A stretch of DNA of 60,081 nt, the filler included, from Diploschistes diacapsis (taxonomy: Eukaryota), in the NCBI GenBank assembly GCA_023645945.1. It is 5 parts of 5 records of this genome, joined end to end, with 100 filler letters (N's around TTAATTAATTAA, not from the genome) between each part and the next. Parts side by side here need not be neighbours in the genome. Positions count along the whole stretch, not along the records: positions 36,127 to 48,055 come from JALAIB010000783.1; 4 more parts are not named here. One strand, given 5' to 3'. The notes under the pieces are model-generated. The model had not been told where the DNA came from. It ran no database searches and saw only the letters and a list, made by a program, of their open reading frames with translations. Below are positions 26,229-48,155 of the stretch, piece by piece. The translations under genes and the position numbers were made by a program. Numbering within the stretch: the first letter of the stretch is position 1; the number at the start of each line of letters is the position of its first letter.

Positions 26229-28745
26229 TTACTTCACCGATGTTTCCTTACCTTTAACAAGAGTCCGCCTTTGTTCTTCCAAGTCTCTAATACCTTCATT
26301 CTCGAATTCTTCGGTAGACACAGACTCTGTATCTTTTGTAGACTCAGATTCTGCGTCTTCAGTTGATTCATCAGAAGCCTCTTTTTGCCCCTTCAGTAAC
26401 TTCTTAACCCTCCCGTATATGCTTTCGCCTTTTTCCGTTTTAGATTCAGGGACGATTGTGTTGAAGTACGTGGGTCCAAGGTCATTTATCTCCTGGATTC
26501 TTTCGAGCTCCTTCTTAATCCTCTCTGGTTCCGATTTAAAGACAGAGACGCTGTACAAGTAACGACATTGAATACATCCTTTATCCTGTCCGACTATTAC
26601 CACCAACACAGCGTCCAAGTGATGACCATAGTCAGCTAGATCTGGGCGCTTCAGTTTCTCGCTAAGGAGTATTGCCATCTGCTCTGGAAGCTGTTTCGTC
26701 GATAAAATTCCATACCGGCTGGGCTCCACCACATCTTCGGTAATGACTTCGCCATTAATGTTTCTCAGACAGCTGATTTCGAACCAGCACCCCGAGTCGT
26801 CAATCATGTTGAAAGTTCTATTGAGAGGCCTCATGATGCCAGAAATGATTACGCCAGGCAGTCGAATCGCAAGATCTTCCCTGGTATGATACCCATCTTG
26901 GAGATGGTAATAAGCGACGGAGTTCTGCCCGTCACATAAAGTGGCAGGTGCCCAACGATAGCCTTCCGCTGTCAACCTCGGCGCGGACTAGAAAATAGCA
27001 CCTGCGGAAATGGTCTGCAGAGGTTCCCAAATGACTTTCATTCGATCCTCGACGGGAGCTCGGACGATAGCTTCGGGACTAATTCCTAACAGATTTCCTA
27101 AACATAACCCTTCGTCAGTTCCCACGCTTGTCGAGCGGAAGGCAAGGGCCTTTTTGGCCTCTTGTACGGTGAAGTGGTCCTTGTCTAGAAATTCGGATCC
27201 CCGGAGGGTATACTGGGCTACCAAGCTCCTATGGTTCCAAAGTTCATGAGGACCCCAGGCGAGTCTGTTCGAAGTAAGTCGAGTTCTTATCACGTTGACG
27301 AGGGTGATTTCAGGAAACAGCAATTGATATGTCCAGCCGTTAGCAGCTTTGCCACTTGAGTTACTTTCACACTTGCTGAAATTGAAACTCACGTTTGTTC
27401 GTGCCTGATGTCCCCTACTATAGGATCCACTGCGTAGTCAGAGAACTGGAAGTACAAACTAGCACCAATGTATCCCTCTTGAAGTGTCCACAGCCTGCGA
27501 TTCCAGGGGCTACAGAGAATACGGAACAAAGCCTCGTCTTGTCCCATAGAATGGTGCGGTTGCGACATTACGTACTTATCTATAACTAACACTATCTCAG
27601 CGTCTTTATAGCTCTCACGCATCTTTATCAAAGCGAGATTATACGCCTCGGTGGGCTCAAGAGGGAAGCAAAGCGTATCAAGCCAAAAGGCAGTCGTTTT
27701 CCCATCAGAGGCCTGCGCGACGAGGTCACATATGCGCATATACTGACAGCGAGGAATTGCGTTGTCACTGTTGTTGCCCAGTCCATCGGACCATACATGG
27801 GAAATTGCCACAAATCCCGTGTCAGTGGAAGAAGCAAGGGACACGTGTATCTTTCCATTGCCATCAACCAACGTCTCGGTAGTCACGAGGGATACAGCAT
27901 TCTCCTGCTGTAGAATTTCAAATAGACTGTCCTGGGAAGCAAAGACGAACCTACAATCACAGCCGTCCGTCACATGTTGAGTTTTATAAGTCTCCGGAAC
28001 ATTCTGGTAAGCAAGACAGTTATCAGAAGCGCAGAAGCGATGGCTCTTATTCATACCCGGTCGCTCCAGCCGCGAGATAAAGTACAATTCCGAGCTGCTA
28101 ACTTCCATGTACAGCTTGCGGACCTCACTCGGACACCAACCATCTGCAGTCATCCGAGAAACTAGCAATTCGTTTGCGCCCGCGATGTCTACCATAGGTA
28201 AGACCGGCGCCTCGTCTGCGCTGCCGTCGCCCACGAAAGCAGGCCGCCACGCGAGGCGCACGAACTAGTAGAGCGTCGCGCAGGAGAACAAGAGCCGCTC
28301 GTCGACCTCCACCTTCTCAAAGAAGGCCTCGGTAAACACGCGGCCCATTTCCGAAAAGCACTTCGCGAGGCGCTCCACATCCGCCCGGCGTGTGTCCGCT
28401 GCAAGCGCACTCTCCCGTTGGATCCATTCGTCCAGGTAATCCTTCAACGCGGCGGTCGTGATGACCGGTCGGCCGTTTTCTTCCGAGGTGCGCACGAAGT
28501 CTTCCTTCTTGACGGGCCGGCCGAAGACTTCGCACAGCAGGCCGAAGTAGCACCAGCTTTGCAGCAGGCTGTTCAGGTCATCGGCGGTGCGGGTTCCACT
28601 GTCGCGGCGCGAAGAGCTCGGCCTCTTTCCATTTGACGCGGTCAAGGTATTCGAGCAGAGGGCCACCGTCGTGCTCTTGGTGGCAGAAGTACGGGACTTC
28701 AATGGGAGGTAGGATTGGGTTGAGGGGGGATGGTATATGGTCCAT
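26229..28745 (-). pseudogene. HET-domain protein gene, disrupted (1 frameshift, 2 in-frame TAG)
   Basis: N-terminus MDHIPSP...IEVPYFC...HDGG from ATG 28745; frameshift near 28591-28593 into LLQSWCYFGLL; TAG at 28267-28265; GWCPSE; HET motifs FVAISHVWSDGLGN, FWLDTLCFP, SPWNRRLWTLQEG; probable intron 27392-27286; TAG at 26990-26988 just before SAPRLTAEGYRWAP. Confidence 0.85.
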
Positions 28746-36126: not shown

Positions 36127-38236
36127 GGATGGGAGAGGGCGAATGGCTCGCGGGAGGTTGGTTGTGGGGTGGACATGGTGATGCGCACGTGCGGTGGTTT
36201 TCGTGGAAAAAAACCGATATTGATGCTATTGATCGTTAAGAGGGATGGCGCCATGGCAGTTTCGGCATTGCTGGGCCAGTGCGACTTTCTTTATATGCTT
36301 CGGGCCTGTGGCGCATCGCAACAACATGCCCGTATGTATGGGTGTCTCTGGGGGTCAGTTGGGGCTACTCGAGGCGACGCCGCCTTGGGTGCGTAAGCCA
36401 GCGCATGATGTGCCGTCTTTGGGTATCGGAGCACACAATTCCATGCAGCTCGTTCGGCTCATCGTTGATGGAATCCACGAATCTCCCATCTCATAGGGGG
36501 ACCTCTTAGCCTCAGGAACAGCCTCAGGAACGAACGGCGCTGTAGATAGATGGGCATGAGCGACCTAAACTTAGTCAACAGAGAAAATTGGCTGCGGCTG
36601 CGCCTTTCCCTTTTGGGTTGGAAAGCGAGCATATCCCGAATCGGTTTGGCGTGCCGATTCTAGTTTAGCTCGACGTCACTTTTCTTATCCGTCTTTGGCC
36701 TAGGTAGATAGAAGAATCTTGGCGATATCAATGCGAGTTGCTCGTTTCCTTGCCGCCAGATGCTGCGCGCACTCTGATTCTCCTGTTCGATTCGAAACCC
36801 TATGGCATTGAATGCCTTTGGGGGGTTAAGGTCCCCTCCAGGCTGCTTTTAATCCTCTAGTGAATCCGAAGTTAGGGCCTTGGATCCATGGGGGATTAGA
36901 CCCCCTACTTCAGGCTTGTCTCGAATCTTCCCATGCTTGTTTGAATTCAGACCACCCCTGCTTCTTCTGCCAGTGCAATGGATATCCATCATAGAGCTGG
37001 ATGCCCCCCAGCGTGAAACAAAGCGCACGACCTGGGCCCTCTTTACCCCTGGAGCACGTGAAGGATCTCGATATGAGCAAAGTGAGGATTCAGCGCGTTC
37101 CAGGGCGCTATCAATCTCGGATTCTGTTTGGTATCAGGGAAGCATAAGTCACAACCGTTGGAGACATGAATCATTATAATTCAAACAGCATATCCTCATC
37201 AGATCCTAATACACAGAGCAAAGCTTAGCTCTTGCCTTCTGCTGTTCAGATTGTTCCCGTCGTTCAATCCGTTTGTGCTGTCTCGCTTCCTCCTGCCCCC
37301 TCGCTTCCCGTCGCTTAGTATGCTCCTGTTCTCTGGGTTCTTGCTGCTTCCTCGTTTCTTCCGGCTGTCCGCCTTCCTGAGGCCGTATGGAGTTTTGCTC
37401 ATACTCTTTCGCCATACCAGTTGCCTGCTCATAGACTTCGCGACTTCGTGATAGCATATACTTTTCGGGCATTTTCCGAACCCTTCTATTGCGGTTATTG
37501 CGGTGTGACTTCCGAATTTCTCGTCGCAAGGGTTGTCGGGCGGCGAGGGCGGTAATTGCATAAAACAAATTTATATAGCAATAGCTCTCTGTCCATCTTC
37601 GCAGTGTGCATATGTTGATGGAAAAAATCCTGGATCAACTGGAGTGAACCTCTGGGGAACTGGCGGACAGTTCAAACACTGAGGTCGAGGTGCCAAATAC
37701 TTTGCAGCTTCGCCTCTAGTCCAGCGAGGAGAGCTGTCTATTCCATATGAATGATCAAGCAGCATAGCGTGATCTTCTCGGAATCTTGGTATTTTCACAG
37801 CATGCTGGGCACCAGATCTTAATTTCTGCGCGACAGGCTTTTCCAACCCTGTGCTTTGAGAGACGCCCCTTAAGCTCTGGTATTGAAAGCAAAGTCCGCA
37901 AGGGAGCTCGCATCCTTGTTTGTGGTTTGGCTTCATTGGTGGTTTCTGTATGACTAAGAACATACAAAGTGTAAGTTAAAGAAAAACCAGCGCTTGATGA
38001 GAAGAAGAAGCCTCATTGATTATGATTTGAGGTGGGGGCGTGCTCAACATGGAGTTTGAGACTCAGTATCCCCCGATACACCCCTCACGCATCAAGGGTA
38101 CAAATACTTATATCGAGCCATACCTAGCAATGGTGGAAGTTCACTTGCTTTGTAGCACCTGGATGATGGTAACGCTTGGTGGTGATTTAGGCTCAAGGGT
38201 CAAAAAAGTTGTTTTGGGTCCAAAGCGATTAGGACC

Positions 38237-38242
38237 AAAAAA
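38237..38242 (-). terminator. RNA polymerase III T6 terminator of the tRNA gene
   Basis: TTTTTT on the minus strand, one base after the discriminator. Confidence 0.8.
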
Positions 38243-38279
38243 TTGACCTAACCAGGGGTCGAACCTGGAATCTCTTGAT

Positions 38280-38301
38280 AACAGATCTCGATTGTAGGAA
38301 A
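38280..38301 (-). other. Canonical tRNA intron (37/38), 22 nt
   Basis: TTTCCTACAATCGAGATCTGTT, one base 3' of the anticodon; the third-last base G can form the conserved anticodon-intron pair with C32. Confidence 0.88.
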
Positions 38302-38312
38302 TCGTAGTCAAG

Positions 38313-38364
38313 CTAGGATGGGTTAGTCAACTTGAGATTATTCATGCCCGGAGAGATGACATAC
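38313..38364 (-). other. Spliceosomal-type (U2, GT-AG) intron inside the tRNA gene, between positions 26 and 27
   Basis: 52 nt: GTATGTCATCTCTCCGGGCATGAATAATCTCAAGTTGACTAACCCATCCTAG; consensus donor, branch point and acceptor; exact removal restores the cloverleaf. Confidence 0.85.
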
Positions 38365-38577
38365 CGCCTTGCCATTGGGCCATTAGGCCTGGTTGATTTT
38401 CTAATTGCTATTTTTACTAATATATTGCTAACTCTTAACTTTCTCTGATCTCAAGTTTTTCTAAAACAGCCAACTGTCTTGGCATTAGGCGCTGAAAAGT
38501 GCAGCTCGATTTAAACAGAGCAGCTGAAAACCTGCTCGGTTTCAAGAACATGGAGCGACTCTGTTTGTTACAATTAC

Positions 38578-39678
38578 TTATGTTGCCCCTAGAGACGACT
38601 TGAGAGCACTGCAAGCTTCAGCATACGCCCATTCCGTCTGCCGATTTCCCCATTCCCAAGCATCACCGCGCACAACAATCCACGGCACCTTGTCCCAGCC
38701 ATGCCCCACCTTTTCGATCTTCACATGTTTCGCATCCTTACCCGCACCCTTCAATCTACCGACGAACCTCTCGCCTTCCTCCTGAAGCATATCATACTCG
38801 CACGTCAAGATGAAGATATTGTCCGGTAGAAGCCTCTGAAGGAAATCAACGCTAGCCTGGGCGGGCGACAAGAAGGGGTCGCGAAGGATCTGTGCACTGG
38901 GGTCATCCTCCGCTCGCACAGGCAAGTAGCTGTGGTCGAAGAGAGAGCTGAGCGTTGCTGGCATGTTCTCGCTGGGCTTGGGGTTCGTGGCCCGTCGTTG
39001 GGGTCGCGAGAGGGTGTAGTCGACGGCAGGGTAGAAGGAGGCAATGGCCACGATGTCACAGCGAGCCCCGGCCATGGTCTTCGAGTCGAAGCCAGATGGT
39101 ATGGCGGAGCAGTGAGCCTCATGTAACTTCTGCTGCTCCGTGCCTTGTTGGAGCACCGCGTAAAGCAATGGAACGGTTATACTGAGATTGGCGCCAGCAG
39201 AGAAGCCGCTCGTCATCACCCGTGTAGTATCGAGGCATAGCTCCTCTGCATGGTTCGCAAGGTAGTCCAGGGCAAGCGCTCCGTCCTGCACCGCCGTAGG
39301 ATATGGGTATTCCGGAGCCTTTCGGTAGCCCACGCTGACTACCACTGCACCCAGCGCGTCCGAGACTCGGTTTGCCCATTTGATATCATCTTGAGCATTG
39401 CCGATAGTGAAGCCTCCGCCATGGAAGTTGACCACCACTGGGTACTTTGCCTCGGCTTTCGATTGGTATGGTTTCGGATGATAGAAATACAGAGGTATTC
39501 GCCCTTCTGTGAACGGCTTGGGCACCTCGACTGTGCGCTGAAAGGTATAGCTCCTTGTCTGCGAGTTCCACATACCATCCAAGGTGTTCACCGTTTGCAT
39601 CAAGGTTCTCCACATTGTAGCCTGCGCCTTGAGGTACAATTGCGACGGACGCGGCTCTGGCTTTGAGGTTGAGGCCAT
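38578..39678 (-). CDS. Alpha/beta hydrolase fold-3 (HSL-like lipase/esterase)
   Basis: VVVNFHGGGFTIG, YRKAPEYPYP, nucleophile elbow GFSAG, CEYDML, HGWDK; first ATG at 39678. Confidence 0.9.
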   Translation of the reverse strand: MASTSKPEPRPSQLYLKAQATMWRTLMQTVNTLDGMWNSQTRSYTFQRTVEVPKPFTEGRIPLYFYHPKPYQSKAEAKYPVVVNFHGGGFTIGNAQDDIKWANRVSDALGAVVVSVGYRKAPEYPYPTAVQDGALALDYLANHAEELCLDTTRVMTSGFSAGANLSITVPLLYAVLQQGTEQQKLHEAHCSAIPSGFDSKTMAGARCDIVAIASFYPAVDYTLSRPQRRATNPKPSENMPATLSSLFDHSYLPVRAEDDPSAQILRDPFLSPAQASVDFLQRLLPDNIFILTCEYDMLQEEGERFVGRLKGAGKDAKHVKIEKVGHGWDKVPWIVVRGDAWEWGNRQTEWAYAEACSALKSSLGAT

Positions 39679-40564
39679 TGTACCGGTTGATATAGCAAGA
39701 TAAGACAATTGCAATGTGATAAAGACACGTTGAATCCCTTCTGAAGTAACAAGGTAGCTGGAACGGACACAGTATGCTAGGAAATGTGGCTGGTGGAACT
39801 ATATACGGAACATCTTCCATCGGCAAATACGCGTAGCTGCTGCTGCCTGGATGTTCACTCATCCTTTTCGCCCACGATAGGTGGTTTGAAAGTTCCGCTT
39901 GAAGTATCATTTGAACGAGATAATGGTATAGTTCCCATAGTCGTGTGATGCCCGAATCGATCGATTGTTCTATACCGTAGTGGCAGATGTCATACCTAGT
40001 AATCTGGAGCTGCAACGCACTTCTCCTTCTCTTCAACCCTGACGCTAACAAAGTCACCTACCTTTATATCTTGCCTCAGACGCACACTAGGGCGACCAGA
40101 CACGGAAATTGAGGCCTTGTTCGTTGCTCAAAAAGTTGTTCTCAGAGGGGTTGCTGTTGGGTTCGCGTACGAATTTCATGATTTGTGCGACTACGTACTG
40201 CAGCGCGCACGAAGCCCAAGAGAAAATATACAAGAGAAATGGTGTGATCGAATCAACGAAAAAGACCGATCTCTGTGGAGTTGTTTCAGCTTTATCACTG
40301 TCGGGATTCGCTTCTGGACAGTTCCTCCCATGGAAGCCTTCACCACTTCGACGTGACTGACTGGACTGAAGCTCATATTTCAGCTGTTTGATTCTCGACG
40401 TCGCAGCACATGGTCGAGGGAGCCATGGTATCTAACAAAAGCCGGCTGCAATCCGTCTACGGTGGATCAGACCCATCTGGTGCGCCATTCTCTTGTCTCA
40501 ACAACACCCAGCCTCCTTTTTAGTACGAAGAAACACCTTTTCGACTGCGACGAGAGACGACCTC

Positions 40565-44856: not shown

Positions 44857-45197
44857 CTTTGGTAGATAACGAAAGGTTTCGTAGTATCATAATTCGCGAA
44901 AGAAGAGCAAAACATACCAGGGCCTACCGGTTTAGTTTGTCAAAGTATCATGGACTCTTGCCCTCGGGCTCGCTTTTGCAGGAGACCTTGGACATACGGT
45001 GTGAGATTCCAGTATATAATTGCCCTTCATAGTAAACGAGTTTTCAGAGGTTTCGCTTGCAGTGACCGCGCCGTGCGCCGCGATAAATATTTTACTTCGG
45101 GCGGAAGCAACTGTGAGGTCGTCGAGTATTTACTGTGTGTGCACCTGCTTGACAGTGAGGATTTCGAAAATTTTCTTGCGTGCCGATCTCGGTCGCC

Positions 45198-48055
45198 ATG
45201 GCTCATCCTCCGGAGCTCGATCTGGACATTATCCGAGCAAGAGCGGAACAAGAAAACAACGACAGCGCCTCGGGCATTCCTAGGCCAACCTCACCGTCCA
45301 CAGACGCGGTCATTGTACGCGCAGATGAAGTAGATGAGGTGCCCGAGGATAGACCTCAGCGTCCTATCCTCCGACGTGAAGGTTCTGCTCCTCCACCACC
45401 GCCAAGACAACCTCCTCCGCCAGCGCCACAAGCACAAGAAGACGGGCAATCCGAGTCTTTGAGCGTAGCACAGCTGAGGAATATTGCTACGAATCTGCCC
45501 AAACTAGAGCCCAAGGCCTACGCTTACAGCTATGATGAGACTAGGACTTTTCCGGAGGAGCTTGAGGAGTGGTTTCAATACACGGAGTACGAGCGAGGGC
45601 TCTGGGAGGCTTCCAAGGGTGCCTACGATGAGGGTTTTGCGAGCTTTGAGGATATGGAGGAGCGAGGAGCGGGCGCTGGTCTCGACCCCTCTTCTGGATG
45701 CAACGAGAGGTTTGTCACCCAGCAACTGGAAATTCTTGAGGGAACCGATCCAGAGTCGAGGAGACAGGCTTTACTGGCCATCACCTACATGGCTATGGGA
45801 TCATGGGCCAGGCTTGACAGCCGAAGCGACAGTGTCCCTGAAGAGGATGCATCGGATTTTGCGCCGCCAAATGGCAAATACCGGAGAGCAAACGTCCAGT
45901 TATGGTCCATTCAGGCAGCGTCGATCCTGCTTTGCAGGGCTGGGGCTGTAAAGGTCTTGTTCAAGATTGTTCGGAAGATCTGTGATCAGTAGGTGATCAC
46001 CGCCCCCGAGAAGCTTTGTTAATTCGAACGAGGTCTGCGAAGAGCGAACTCTCTCCTCTAGATGATTCCGAGCTAGCCGCAGCTCTGACAAGTCTGTACT
46101 TTATAGCAGAGGCAGGGCGACAGCAATTGAAGCGGGAAGCCGGGGATTCCATTCGAACAGCATTTCGTGAGTATCTTATTTCTGGCGTGTCATCTCGCGA
46201 TTCTGGCTAAAATCTGATGATAGTTGCGCTCGAGCCAAGCTTTCTTGAGTACTTCTGTCAACTGATAGCTAGGCTACGATGGGATGATTCTTCCAGTCTG
46301 CCCTTTACAAAGGTATGGTTCTTCTAGAAAGCCTGGAGCTTGCTAATATCGAAAGGTTCTTCTGCTATTCTGGAAATCAATTCTACTGGACTTTGGTAGT
46401 AGCAAAGATCTGAACAGCTGCAAGAACGAACTTCGAACCGACAACGATGTGGACAAGAATCAGAACGAGGCCTATTTGACCGCCTCCCCTCTGGACTATC
46501 ATGCGTTCCGTCAAGAGATCACCTCCAAGTATCCTGCCTACAACCCTCCCCCGCCACTAGTTCCATTGGAGATTGACAACAACACTATGCTGCCGCCACT
46601 GCCAAATCACGTAAGTACAAGCACGAGCCACGACGATCTGCAAGCTCTGGGCGTGAACAATGGCCCCTCGACGTCCATCTTCCACCAACCCGTCCATATT
46701 GCGACTCCTGCACCCTCTCCCCCTCCAACACCAGGCGGGCCGGGTGGGAAAGGTGGAAAGAAGCAGAACTACCAAACGAATCAGAACTTTCCCTTCTTGT
46801 ATCCACCGTTAGACAGCACCAGCAATGAAGTTGGAGGTAAGGGGAATGCGGTACTACAGGATCGTCTTGTAGGCAAGCAGTGGGAAGGAAGTGACATACC
46901 AGCGTCGATACTGGAGGCTGCACAGCTATTTCACAGTCGAATGCGGATGTCAAGACCACTGCGGCAGTTATGGGACGTGCGCGAAGAGTTTATCAAATAC
47001 GAGAGAGGATGGATAAGCGATGACAGGAATGCCCGAGAGCAGGACAATGCTCCAGAAGATGGAGATGACGAGCCTGGTCGAGAAGATGAGAGCAGCTTGA
47101 GAGGCAGCGAAAAACCGCATGATTTGGCCGCCGAGGACGCGGAGCCCCCTGCTCCACGGAAGGAAGACGACGATTCGGTCCAGCGCAGACTTGATGTAGT
47201 TGAAGTATTCTATGTAAGTTCACCACAAGCGCTACGATCCGGGACTGACGACTGCCAGCGAAGCGCAATACCCAACCTGCAGTCCATCGTCATTGTTCTC
47301 CTCAAGGTCCTTCTCTCCAATATCACTGTTCTCGGGTCTCAACCTAATGCCTCAAACCCGGAAGGCGGCGATGATGCAGTCGTATCCAACGGGTCGGATC
47401 TTCTGCCAACAATGAACCTCAATCTGTCAAATTACCTATCCGGGACGAACGAGCAGCATTCCGATGCGCATCTGGAGTCGAACCCGTTGGAAGTCTTGAA
47501 TTCTATTAGGACTAGGGAGATCACCTCGAAGGCCGTAGCAGGACTCATTCTTGCGCTGCTGAAGTGGTTCAGGCTATCGCGTAAGTCTCCCGCAAAAGTT
47601 TTCTGTGATGTGCTCATATGTGAGATAGATATCCTGAAGTTCGAGTACTTTGCCCAACTCCTGCTCGACTCGAATTACATCCCACTTGCCTTGAAATACT
47701 TTGCCCTGCAAGACGTGGACAAAGCAGTCGACCTCAAGCACGACCGCGATGATCTCGGGTATTTGCTCTTACCTTTTCTTGCTTCTCCCTTTTTCTCTCG
47801 CGTGTTCTTATCTCCCCTTATATTACATCCTCACGGCCAACTCTCTTCCGTTCTTTTCATTCTCTACCCTCTCTTTCCTTCTAACTCTGTGTTCCATTCT
47901 TACTTTTCACTGTCCTTCCGACTCCTTCCTTTCCACTATCCCCTTTCCTTGCTCCGCCTTCTTCCGTTTCCCGATAATTGTCGACCCCTCACTAACCCAT
48001 CACAGTTTCTTCCGCTTCTGCCACCTCGACTCCGGCCACGCCTTCACCCCACCCC
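45198..48055 (+). CDS. FAR11: STRIPAK component Far11/PRO22/HAM-2 (STRIP1-like); multi-exon, 3' truncated at contig end
   Basis: FPEELEEWFQY, LRWDD, LLLFWKSILL, TASPLDYHAFRQEITSKYPAYNPPPP, PGGKGGKKQNYQTNQNFPFLYPP, REITSKAV...LLKWFRLSH/ILKFEY, FFRFCH in the last visible exon. Confidence 0.92.
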
Positions 48056-48155
48056 NNNNNNNNNNNNNNNNNNNNNNNNNNNNNNNNNNNNNNNNNNNNT
48101 TAATTAATTAANNNNNNNNNNNNNNNNNNNNNNNNNNNNNNNNNNNNNNNNNNNN
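48056..48155. other. Artificial contig-joining linker
   Basis: 44 N + TTAATTAATTAA + 44 N. Confidence 0.98.

Follow-up and report, generated by a model that had tools for sequence, protein, structure and literature searches.

A putative spliceosomal intron in a fungal nuclear tRNA-Arg(ACG) gene and analogous inserts in metagenome contigs

Introduction

Textbook accounts place the introns of nuclear tRNA genes between positions 37 and 38 of the mature molecule, where they are removed only by the tRNA endonuclease (SEN) and a ligase. Here we describe a nuclear tRNA-Arg(ACG) gene that is interrupted at a second place as well, found in a DNA stretch of 60,081 nucleotides from the Diploschistes diacapsis assembly GCA_023645945.1. 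This stretch, at its full length and with filler included, is called the window below; it consists of five parts joined end to end, and the gene lies on the part that comes from JALAIB010000783.1. On the minus strand, at positions 38389-38244, the tRNA is encoded in three pieces, split by an insert of 52 nt between tRNA positions 26 and 27 and by a 22-nt intron at 37/38. We regard it as probable that the first of these is a true spliceosomal (U2-type GT-AG) intron located where the D arm meets the anticodon stem, present in addition to the usual 37/38 intron.

The occurrence of mRNA-type introns in genes for structured RNAs is not without precedent. Excerpts of a 2018 review (PMC5855946) list spliceosomal introns in the genes for U6, U2, U5 and U1 small nuclear RNA (snRNA) and for rRNA, and call the determinants of their insertion into non-coding RNAs unclear. 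The same excerpts cite mRNA-type introns of U6 snRNA in Schizosaccharomyces pombe and further fungi (Tani and Ohshima 1989, 1991, cited in PMC5855946) and, for ascomycetes that are in many cases lichen-forming, spliceosomal introns in rRNA genes (Bhattacharya et al. 2000, cited in PMC5855946). As far as these excerpts describe them, the U6 introns resemble the genes reported here in that a short GT-AG intron with a branch site is found in a small structured non-coding gene transcribed by RNA polymerase III (Pol III), and in being lineage-specific and varying in position. The U6 introns are removed by the spliceosome, as is proposed for the gene of the window. They differ in two respects: a tRNA is no part of the spliceosome, and the usual explanation by reverse splicing into an RNA at the catalytic centre is not directly applicable to it; and the tRNA precursor has to be processed by a further splicing system, SEN, as well. 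The rRNA introns, again according to the excerpts, are likewise found outside Pol II genes, in the same broad fungal group and the same lichen habitat, and are short with a strong consensus; unlike these hosts, which are Pol I transcripts kilobases in length, the host considered here is a 72-nt Pol III product whose tertiary core is broken by the intron.

Comparison with known tRNA introns separates the two interruptions of the gene. The 22-nt intron of the window and a 20-nt intron at a further locus (L008, see below) are of the canonical 37/38 kind handled by SEN and ligase, whereas the 52-nt insert at 26/27 (and its counterparts at 25/26, 27/28 and 31/32 of other genes) carries mRNA splice signals. 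Introns outside 37/38, sometimes several per gene and missed by gene finders, are described in excerpts of reports on archaea, Cyanidioschyzon merolae and nucleomorphs (PMC3728597, PMC4033280, PMC3978253); these have a bulge-helix-bulge (BHB) and lack GT, branch and AG signals, whereas the reverse is found here. Searches of open-access PubMed Central and bioRxiv texts turned up no tRNA gene with a natural spliceosomal intron; they largely leave subscription journals uncovered, so that a report there is possible. Around 1990, Koehrer, Vogel and Domdey reportedly made an artificial yeast tRNA gene with a pre-mRNA intron that was spliced by the mRNA pathway, which would mean that the spliceosome can process a tRNA precursor made by Pol III; that construct would have been engineered with its intron at the natural site, unlike the natural and recurrent genes reported here, whose inserts occupy other sites. 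The present genes would extend the spliceosomal introns of non-coding Pol III-type genes to tRNA.

Structure of the tRNA-Arg(ACG) gene

The features of the locus, all on the minus strand, are as follows.

38419-38425, minus strand: TATA-like AT-rich element, ATATATT, at roughly -36 to -30 relative to the mature 5′ terminus, with a putative promoter role
38365-38389, minus strand: exon 1, 25 nt, tRNA positions 1-26 (5′ strand of the acceptor stem, D arm, G26)
38382-38372, minus strand: A box TGGCCCAATGG, within exon 1
38313-38364, minus strand: intron 1, 52 nt, putatively of spliceosomal type, between positions 26 and 27
38364-38359, minus strand: 5′ site of intron 1, GTATGT
38328-38322, minus strand: branch site of intron 1 predicted from the sequence, (G)ACTAAC, with ACTAAC at 38327-38322 and the branch A at 38323
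38315-38313, minus strand: 3′ site of intron 1, TAG, in the arrangement ACTAAC-N6-TAG, i.e. 9 nt after ACTAAC with TAG included
38302-38312, minus strand: exon 2, CTTGACTACGA, 11 nt, positions 27-37 (5′ strand of the anticodon stem, loop with ACG)
38280-38301, minus strand: intron 2, 22 nt, canonical nuclear tRNA intron at 37/38, as called by ARAGORN once intron 1 is removed
38244-38279, minus strand: exon 3, positions 38-73 (3′ strand of the anticodon stem, variable loop, T arm, 3′ strand of the acceptor stem, discriminator A)
38265-38255, minus strand: B box GGTTCGACCCC, within exon 3
38237-38242, minus strand: T6 run resembling a Pol III terminator, one base (A) past the discriminator, giving the trailer ATTTTTT
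38578-39798, minus strand: open reading frame (ORF) for an alpha/beta-hydrolase (PF07859, E-value 7e-38), ending 192 nt upstream of the tRNA gene; context only

Intron 2 occupies the location expected of a SEN-type intron, whereas intron 1 does not. The latter lies between the A and B boxes, which is the only place where a Pol III gene could tolerate such an insert. The D stem consists of three pairs plus C13-A22, as it does in intron-less genes of the same kind.

ARAGORN recovers the tRNA only when the insert is taken out. In default mode it reports no tRNA gene anywhere in the window, and nothing at the native locus as long as introns are disallowed; with introns allowed, the native locus is called as a false Asp(atc) with a 72-nt intron. 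Once the 52 nt are removed, the same program identifies tRNA-Arg(acg) and places a 22-nt intron at its canonical position; with both inserts removed it gives a tRNA-Arg(acg) of 72 nt. Rfam gives no tRNA at the locus, neither at the gathering score nor with E-values up to 10. A search of the rest of the window for hidden tRNAs found none that combined a T arm with a matching acceptor and a T run.

A preliminary description of this DNA had proposed a complete minus-strand tRNA-Arg(ACG) interrupted twice, which the calls after excision bear out. It had also predicted that standard finders would miss or miscall such a gene, as the false calls of ARAGORN and the blank result of Rfam illustrate, and had suggested scoring the locus with and without the insert; run here with ARAGORN, this comparison yields Arg(ACG) only after removal of the 52 nt. 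Direct reading agrees with it on the GTATGT start, the ACTAAC branch site and the TAG end of the insert, on the integrity of the four stems, the A and B boxes and the T6 terminator, and on an ordinary 37/38 intron (22 nt) as the second interruption. Its statement that neither intron contains a run of four or more T is likewise correct, the longest runs being 2 in the 52-nt insert and 3 in the 22-nt intron. Its further claim, that exact excision of GT...AG restores the junction, stands: the product is a 72-nt Arg(acg), with a junction equal to that of natural intron-less genes. The boundary is not strictly unique, however, since a repeated G makes GT...AG and GG...TA equally good placements. 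Beyond that description, the present analysis adds the recurrence of the feature in other environmental contigs, at four different positions, and the failure of a BHB test.

The preliminary description had compared the insert in size and signals with the mRNA introns of the window, and this likeness was found again with the two introns that could be fixed by homologues and reading frame in the Far11 gene: that at 46167-46223 (57 nt, GTGAGT...CTGAT...TAG) and that at 46313-46355 (43 nt, GTATGG...CTAAT...AAG). The tRNA insert is closer to the consensus than either. A small RNA encoded within intron 1 was considered and rejected, since no C/D-box-like motifs were seen by eye inside it and 52 nt are too short.

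Analogous genes in metagenome contigs

Metagenome contigs were scanned with a pattern consisting of D-arm letters, any 45-75 bases and six anticodon-loop letters, which contains no splice signal. The 26 matches comprised four insert-bearing tRNA-Arg(ACG) genes at three loci, two intron-less genes (L024 and L026, picked up through a chance downstream match to the pattern) and 20 non-tRNA sequences, mostly GC-rich and coding-like. As controls, prokaryote genomes scanned with the same pattern gave 22 chance matches, and viral contigs gave none. Boundaries of the inserts were set by alignment to the intron-less L026, or, at L008, by direct inspection of the parts, with the following outcome.

L001: insert of 46 nt, GTAAGT...GTTAAC...TAG, at 25/26; two placements, one of them GT...AG
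L019 and its orthologue L002: insert of 48 nt, GTATGT...ACTAAC...AAG, at 27/28; unique placement
L008: insert of 49 nt, GTTCGT...GCTAAC...CAG, at 31/32; unique placement; also a 20-nt canonical intron at 37/38

All four tRNA-like matches start with GTNNGT and end with YTAAC...AG, against none of the 42 others (20 metagenome, 22 prokaryote). When the window is included, a GT...AG placement is possible in each of the four independent inserts (window, L001, L019/L002, L008), for which the chance probability is about 9e-10 under equal base frequencies, and the 3′ ends are all AG (TAG in the window and L001, AAG in L019/L002, CAG in L008). The observation itself is confirmed as real and far beyond chance. 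Removal of GT...AG leads ARAGORN to call Arg(acg) in all four metagenome genes; the called tRNAs have 72 nt, apart from that of L002, which has 70 nt. The inserts of the window and of these loci all lie between the A and B boxes and contain no T run above 4; introns of different loci align poorly outside the splice signals, and tblastx detects nothing in common between the metagenome loci and the window. The introns at 25/26, 26/27 and 27/28 may be separate gains or a single old intron that has slid.

Several observations concern the handling of these genes by the software. With introns allowed, ARAGORN miscalls L001 as Gly(tcc) and L019 as Lys(ttt), both with false introns, as is the case for the Asp(atc) of the window; native L002 gives no gene, and native L008 an Arg with an odd structure. 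Intron-bearing genes of this type would corrupt automatic anticodon inventories, and those of such fungi may be wrong. Note also that the 20-nt intron of L008 opens with ATCAAG and is itself followed by these same six letters, so that its boundaries can be drawn in more than one way.

Three other candidates were set aside. L010 fits the scan pattern and has CTAAC, but is without a T arm and gives nothing with ARAGORN, and it was counted as non-tRNA; the ARAGORN call at L004, with an intron of 916 nt, is spurious; and the chance match at L018 (169-1833) falls among four tRNA genes (Gly, Thr, Tyr, Thr) that form a bacterial-type cluster.

The same locus and intron-less counterparts in other data sets

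The full stretch is contained in a lichen metagenome, X1. Sampled words of the stretch are present at a fraction of 0.41 in X2 and 0.29 in X3, which are from other studies (X3 is a rock metagenome); their contigs, together with those of a fourth data set, X4, were compared with the window over 37300-39300. A single X3 contig runs across 38222-38426 with 8 differences and 0 gaps, and contains the gene with its insert. X2 contigs cover 38268-38364 and 38366-38451, and the insert is present there without indels. The differences listed inside the insert, at 38319 (X2) and 38334 (X2 and X3), both fall outside GTATGT, ACTAAC and TAG. X1 matches with its one source contig only, which carries no weight for or against an intron-less paralogue in that sample.

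The proposed junctions are also found in a natural gene that has neither insert. A 47,977-nt contig of X4 matches 38382-38365 and 38279-38252 with 0 mismatches, and carries between these two segments exactly the 11 letters of exon 2. This is a natural gene, from a different locus or a different organism, that is free of both inserts at exactly the junctions proposed here. The metagenome genes L024 and L026 are likewise intron-less tRNA-Arg(ACG) genes with the same core, and the letters of their exon 1 are identical to those of the window.

Two further features of this comparison may be recorded. The summed depth of X2 contigs about doubles over the bins with tRNA exons (38238-38304 and 38372-38438), where further contigs with exon sequences, from paralogues or other organisms, are found. 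Downstream of the tRNA, 37300-38060 carries many substitutions and several indels in X2 and X3 and is far more diverged than either the tRNA locus or the hydrolase gene; this region is probably intergenic.

Signs of function

Taken together, six distinct genes have 120 of 126 stem cells paired, and the 6 exceptions are the C13-A22 common to all of them, the intron-less ones included. Compensatory double changes occur in 7 of the 21 stem pairs of these genes and have kept the tRNA structure intact, a sign that selection acts on the RNA. The orthologues L019 and L002 differ at none of 70 exon positions, at 4 of 48 intron positions (all outside the three signals) and at 20 of 397 positions of the 5′ flank; zero exon substitutions against 24/445 in intron plus 5′ flank has a chance probability of about 0.03. 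Their 3′ flank was left out of this comparison of rates, being partly non-homologous (111/331 differences, 140 gap columns).

The surroundings expected of Pol III genes are present as well. T runs follow the intron-bearing genes, and all seven aligned genes, whether or not they have the intron, possess an AT-rich TATA-like element some 30-40 nt before the mature 5′ end (window, at 38408-38426, L001, L002, L008, L019, L024 and L026). Pol III genes of fission yeast need an upstream TATA, a requirement that the shared element recalls.

Proposed maturation and alternative explanations

The inserts at all loci are best read as true spliceosomal introns of Pol III-type tRNA genes, which would be removed before the tRNA endonuclease acts. 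That the spliceosome can act on a Pol III transcript has a precedent in U6 snRNA, whose genes carry introns in fission yeast and some other fungi. On this reading, Pol III would transcribe the window gene by means of its internal A and B boxes and the upstream TATA-like element and would stop at T6, giving a precursor of about 150 nt. The spliceosome would then recognise GTATGT, ACTAAC and TAG, and the 52 nt would leave as a lariat, which would rebuild the join between D arm and anticodon stem. Only afterwards would the precursor possess the mature-domain geometry that is measured by SEN, and SEN and tRNA ligase would excise the 22-nt intron.

Whether these genes form a whole class is a wider question: the chances seem to us evenly balanced that filamentous, often lichen-associated ascomycetes, and possibly organisms beyond them, have a class of spliceosome-dependent nuclear tRNA genes, which arose by repeated gain of mRNA-type introns between the A and B boxes and were kept in working genes. 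If such a class exists, part of the tRNA supply would depend on the spliceosome and on two splicing systems that act in a fixed order, and the current tRNA gene catalogues of these organisms would be systematically incomplete or wrong. A natural tRNA that also needs the spliceosome would represent a third class of nuclear tRNA intron, and the non-mRNA substrates of the spliceosome (U6, U1, U2 and U5 snRNA, rRNA) would be extended to the most abundant Pol III product. The genes also offer a clean system for intron gain, with a tiny host, exact junctions, four insertion sites within seven nucleotides and available intron-less alleles, and they allow a test of splicing uncoupled from Pol II.

Several points weigh against this interpretation. 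It is well supported by DNA sequence and comparison, but Pol III transcription, spliceosomal removal, the order of the splicing steps and the use of the product are all inferred, and expression, a spliced intermediate and the lariat are predictions. Splicing of Pol III transcripts is generally held to be inefficient outside U6, and the gap from A to B box in the window gene, 106 nt compared with 32 without the inserts, is long for a tRNA gene. The metagenome loci are of uncertain taxon; for L001, the protein clusters matched are solely bacterial ones of MnmG type, which is not decisive, and Pfam finds GIDA as well as part of a P450. Among the five genes with the intron, L002 lacks 2 nt of the T loop and B box (CG of TTCGATC, compared with L019; about 1467-1587 of the locus, minus strand), which may reflect decay of this copy or an assembly error.

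Conservation of the splice signals among close relatives adds little weight. The preliminary description had proposed an alignment of orthologous loci, in which the changes do fall outside the signals (4 in 48 nt for L019/L002, 2 in 52 nt for the window), but this is not significant by itself, with chance probabilities of about 0.24 and about 0.5. The X2/X3 comparison moreover includes 25 differences that are not itemised and leaves differences at contig ends unreported; the listed X2 pieces miss 38365, and 2 of the 4 differences of the piece 38268-38364 are unplaced, so that an altered 5′ splice site in X2 is possible.

The main alternative, which we consider unlikely, is that the interrupted genes are dead or dying copies: an excised mRNA intron would have entered an abundant tRNA by reverse splicing, and a DNA copy of the product would have recombined into a tRNA gene, leaving a young pseudogene from whose Pol III transcript the insert is not usefully removed. 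In its favour are the deletion in L002, the derivation of the argument for splicing from DNA, and the existence of intron-less genes with the same core (L024, L026, X4). Yet the cloverleaf is flawless in four of the five genes with the intron, and their acceptor and T stems carry lineage-specific compensated changes; terminators and upstream elements are kept; the exons of L019 and L002 have stayed identical with the intron already in both; and the same outcome is seen at four positions and at least four loci.

It is also conceivable, but quite improbable in our view, that the tRNA is part of a read-through or non-coding Pol II transcript, from which the intron is removed co-transcriptionally and the tRNA excised by RNase P and RNase Z. 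Recruitment of the spliceosome is normally coupled to Pol II, and the same-strand hydrolase ORF upstream of the window gene could supply such a transcript. This context is not shared by the other genes, however, since L001 has a large neighbouring ORF on the opposite strand, and L019 and L002 sit in AT-rich DNA without long ORFs nearby; furthermore, every gene retains its two boxes and a nearby T run, and T5+ runs are avoided inside the inserts, which is relevant only to Pol III.

Cleavage of an ectopic tRNA intron by the tRNA endonuclease or another nuclease, in the style of archaea, C. merolae or nucleomorphs, would make the GT/AG and branch-like motifs incidental. Ectopic and multiple tRNA introns do occur in a eukaryotic nucleus, that of C. 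merolae, according to excerpts of one report (PMC3728597). We scored the four inserts by our own test for a BHB, i.e. two 3-nt bulges holding the splice sites and a 4-bp helix, in comparison with shuffled introns, and found none at any of them: 2 of the 4 pairs of the central helix form in the window and in L001, and 1 of 4 in L019 and in L008, and the totals are equalled by 8%, 30%, 79% and 100% of shuffled introns, respectively. Since GT...YTAAC...AG, present in 4/4 inserts and 0/42 controls, would also be left unexplained, this possibility is very remote.

An artefact of assembly or a chimera is hardly credible: the window is probably derived from one metagenome assembly (X1), but the locus and its insert are present without indels in X2 and X3, which stem from two other studies, and unrelated metagenome contigs carry analogous genes. 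Self-splicing group I or II introns were rejected, given that the inserts measure 46-52 nt compared with a ribozyme core of hundreds of nucleotides, and that Rfam has no match to them in the window.

Host and gene content of the window

Judging from its genes, the host is a filamentous ascomycete of a poorly sampled lineage that lives in lichens or on rock. This assignment follows from its typical fungal genes, among them those for a Far11/HAM-2-type protein, for SMI1/KNR4 and for a HET-domain protein, together with ascomycete and Teloschistales relatives: the clusters nearest to the aminodeoxychorismate synthase are from ascomycetes, and the nearest named relatives of Far11 are metagenome-assembled genomes of lichen-forming Teloschistales, at only ~50-53% identity.

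The Far11/HAM-2-type gene (N1221, DUF3402; 45159-48107, plus strand) is split by at least three introns. Its first intron, starting at 45989, was dropped from the comparison with the tRNA insert, as its ends could not be reconciled with the frame and the joined coding sequence has stops in all frames. An ORF-merging intron finder returned 124 noisy candidates, which were discarded as evidence, and a census of the loose pattern GT..CTRAY..YAG gave 40 matches in the window compared with a mean of 54.9 in shuffled sequence and was set aside as uninformative. The HET (heterokaryon incompatibility) ORF, a marker of filamentous ascomycetes, is located at 27389-28264 on the minus strand.

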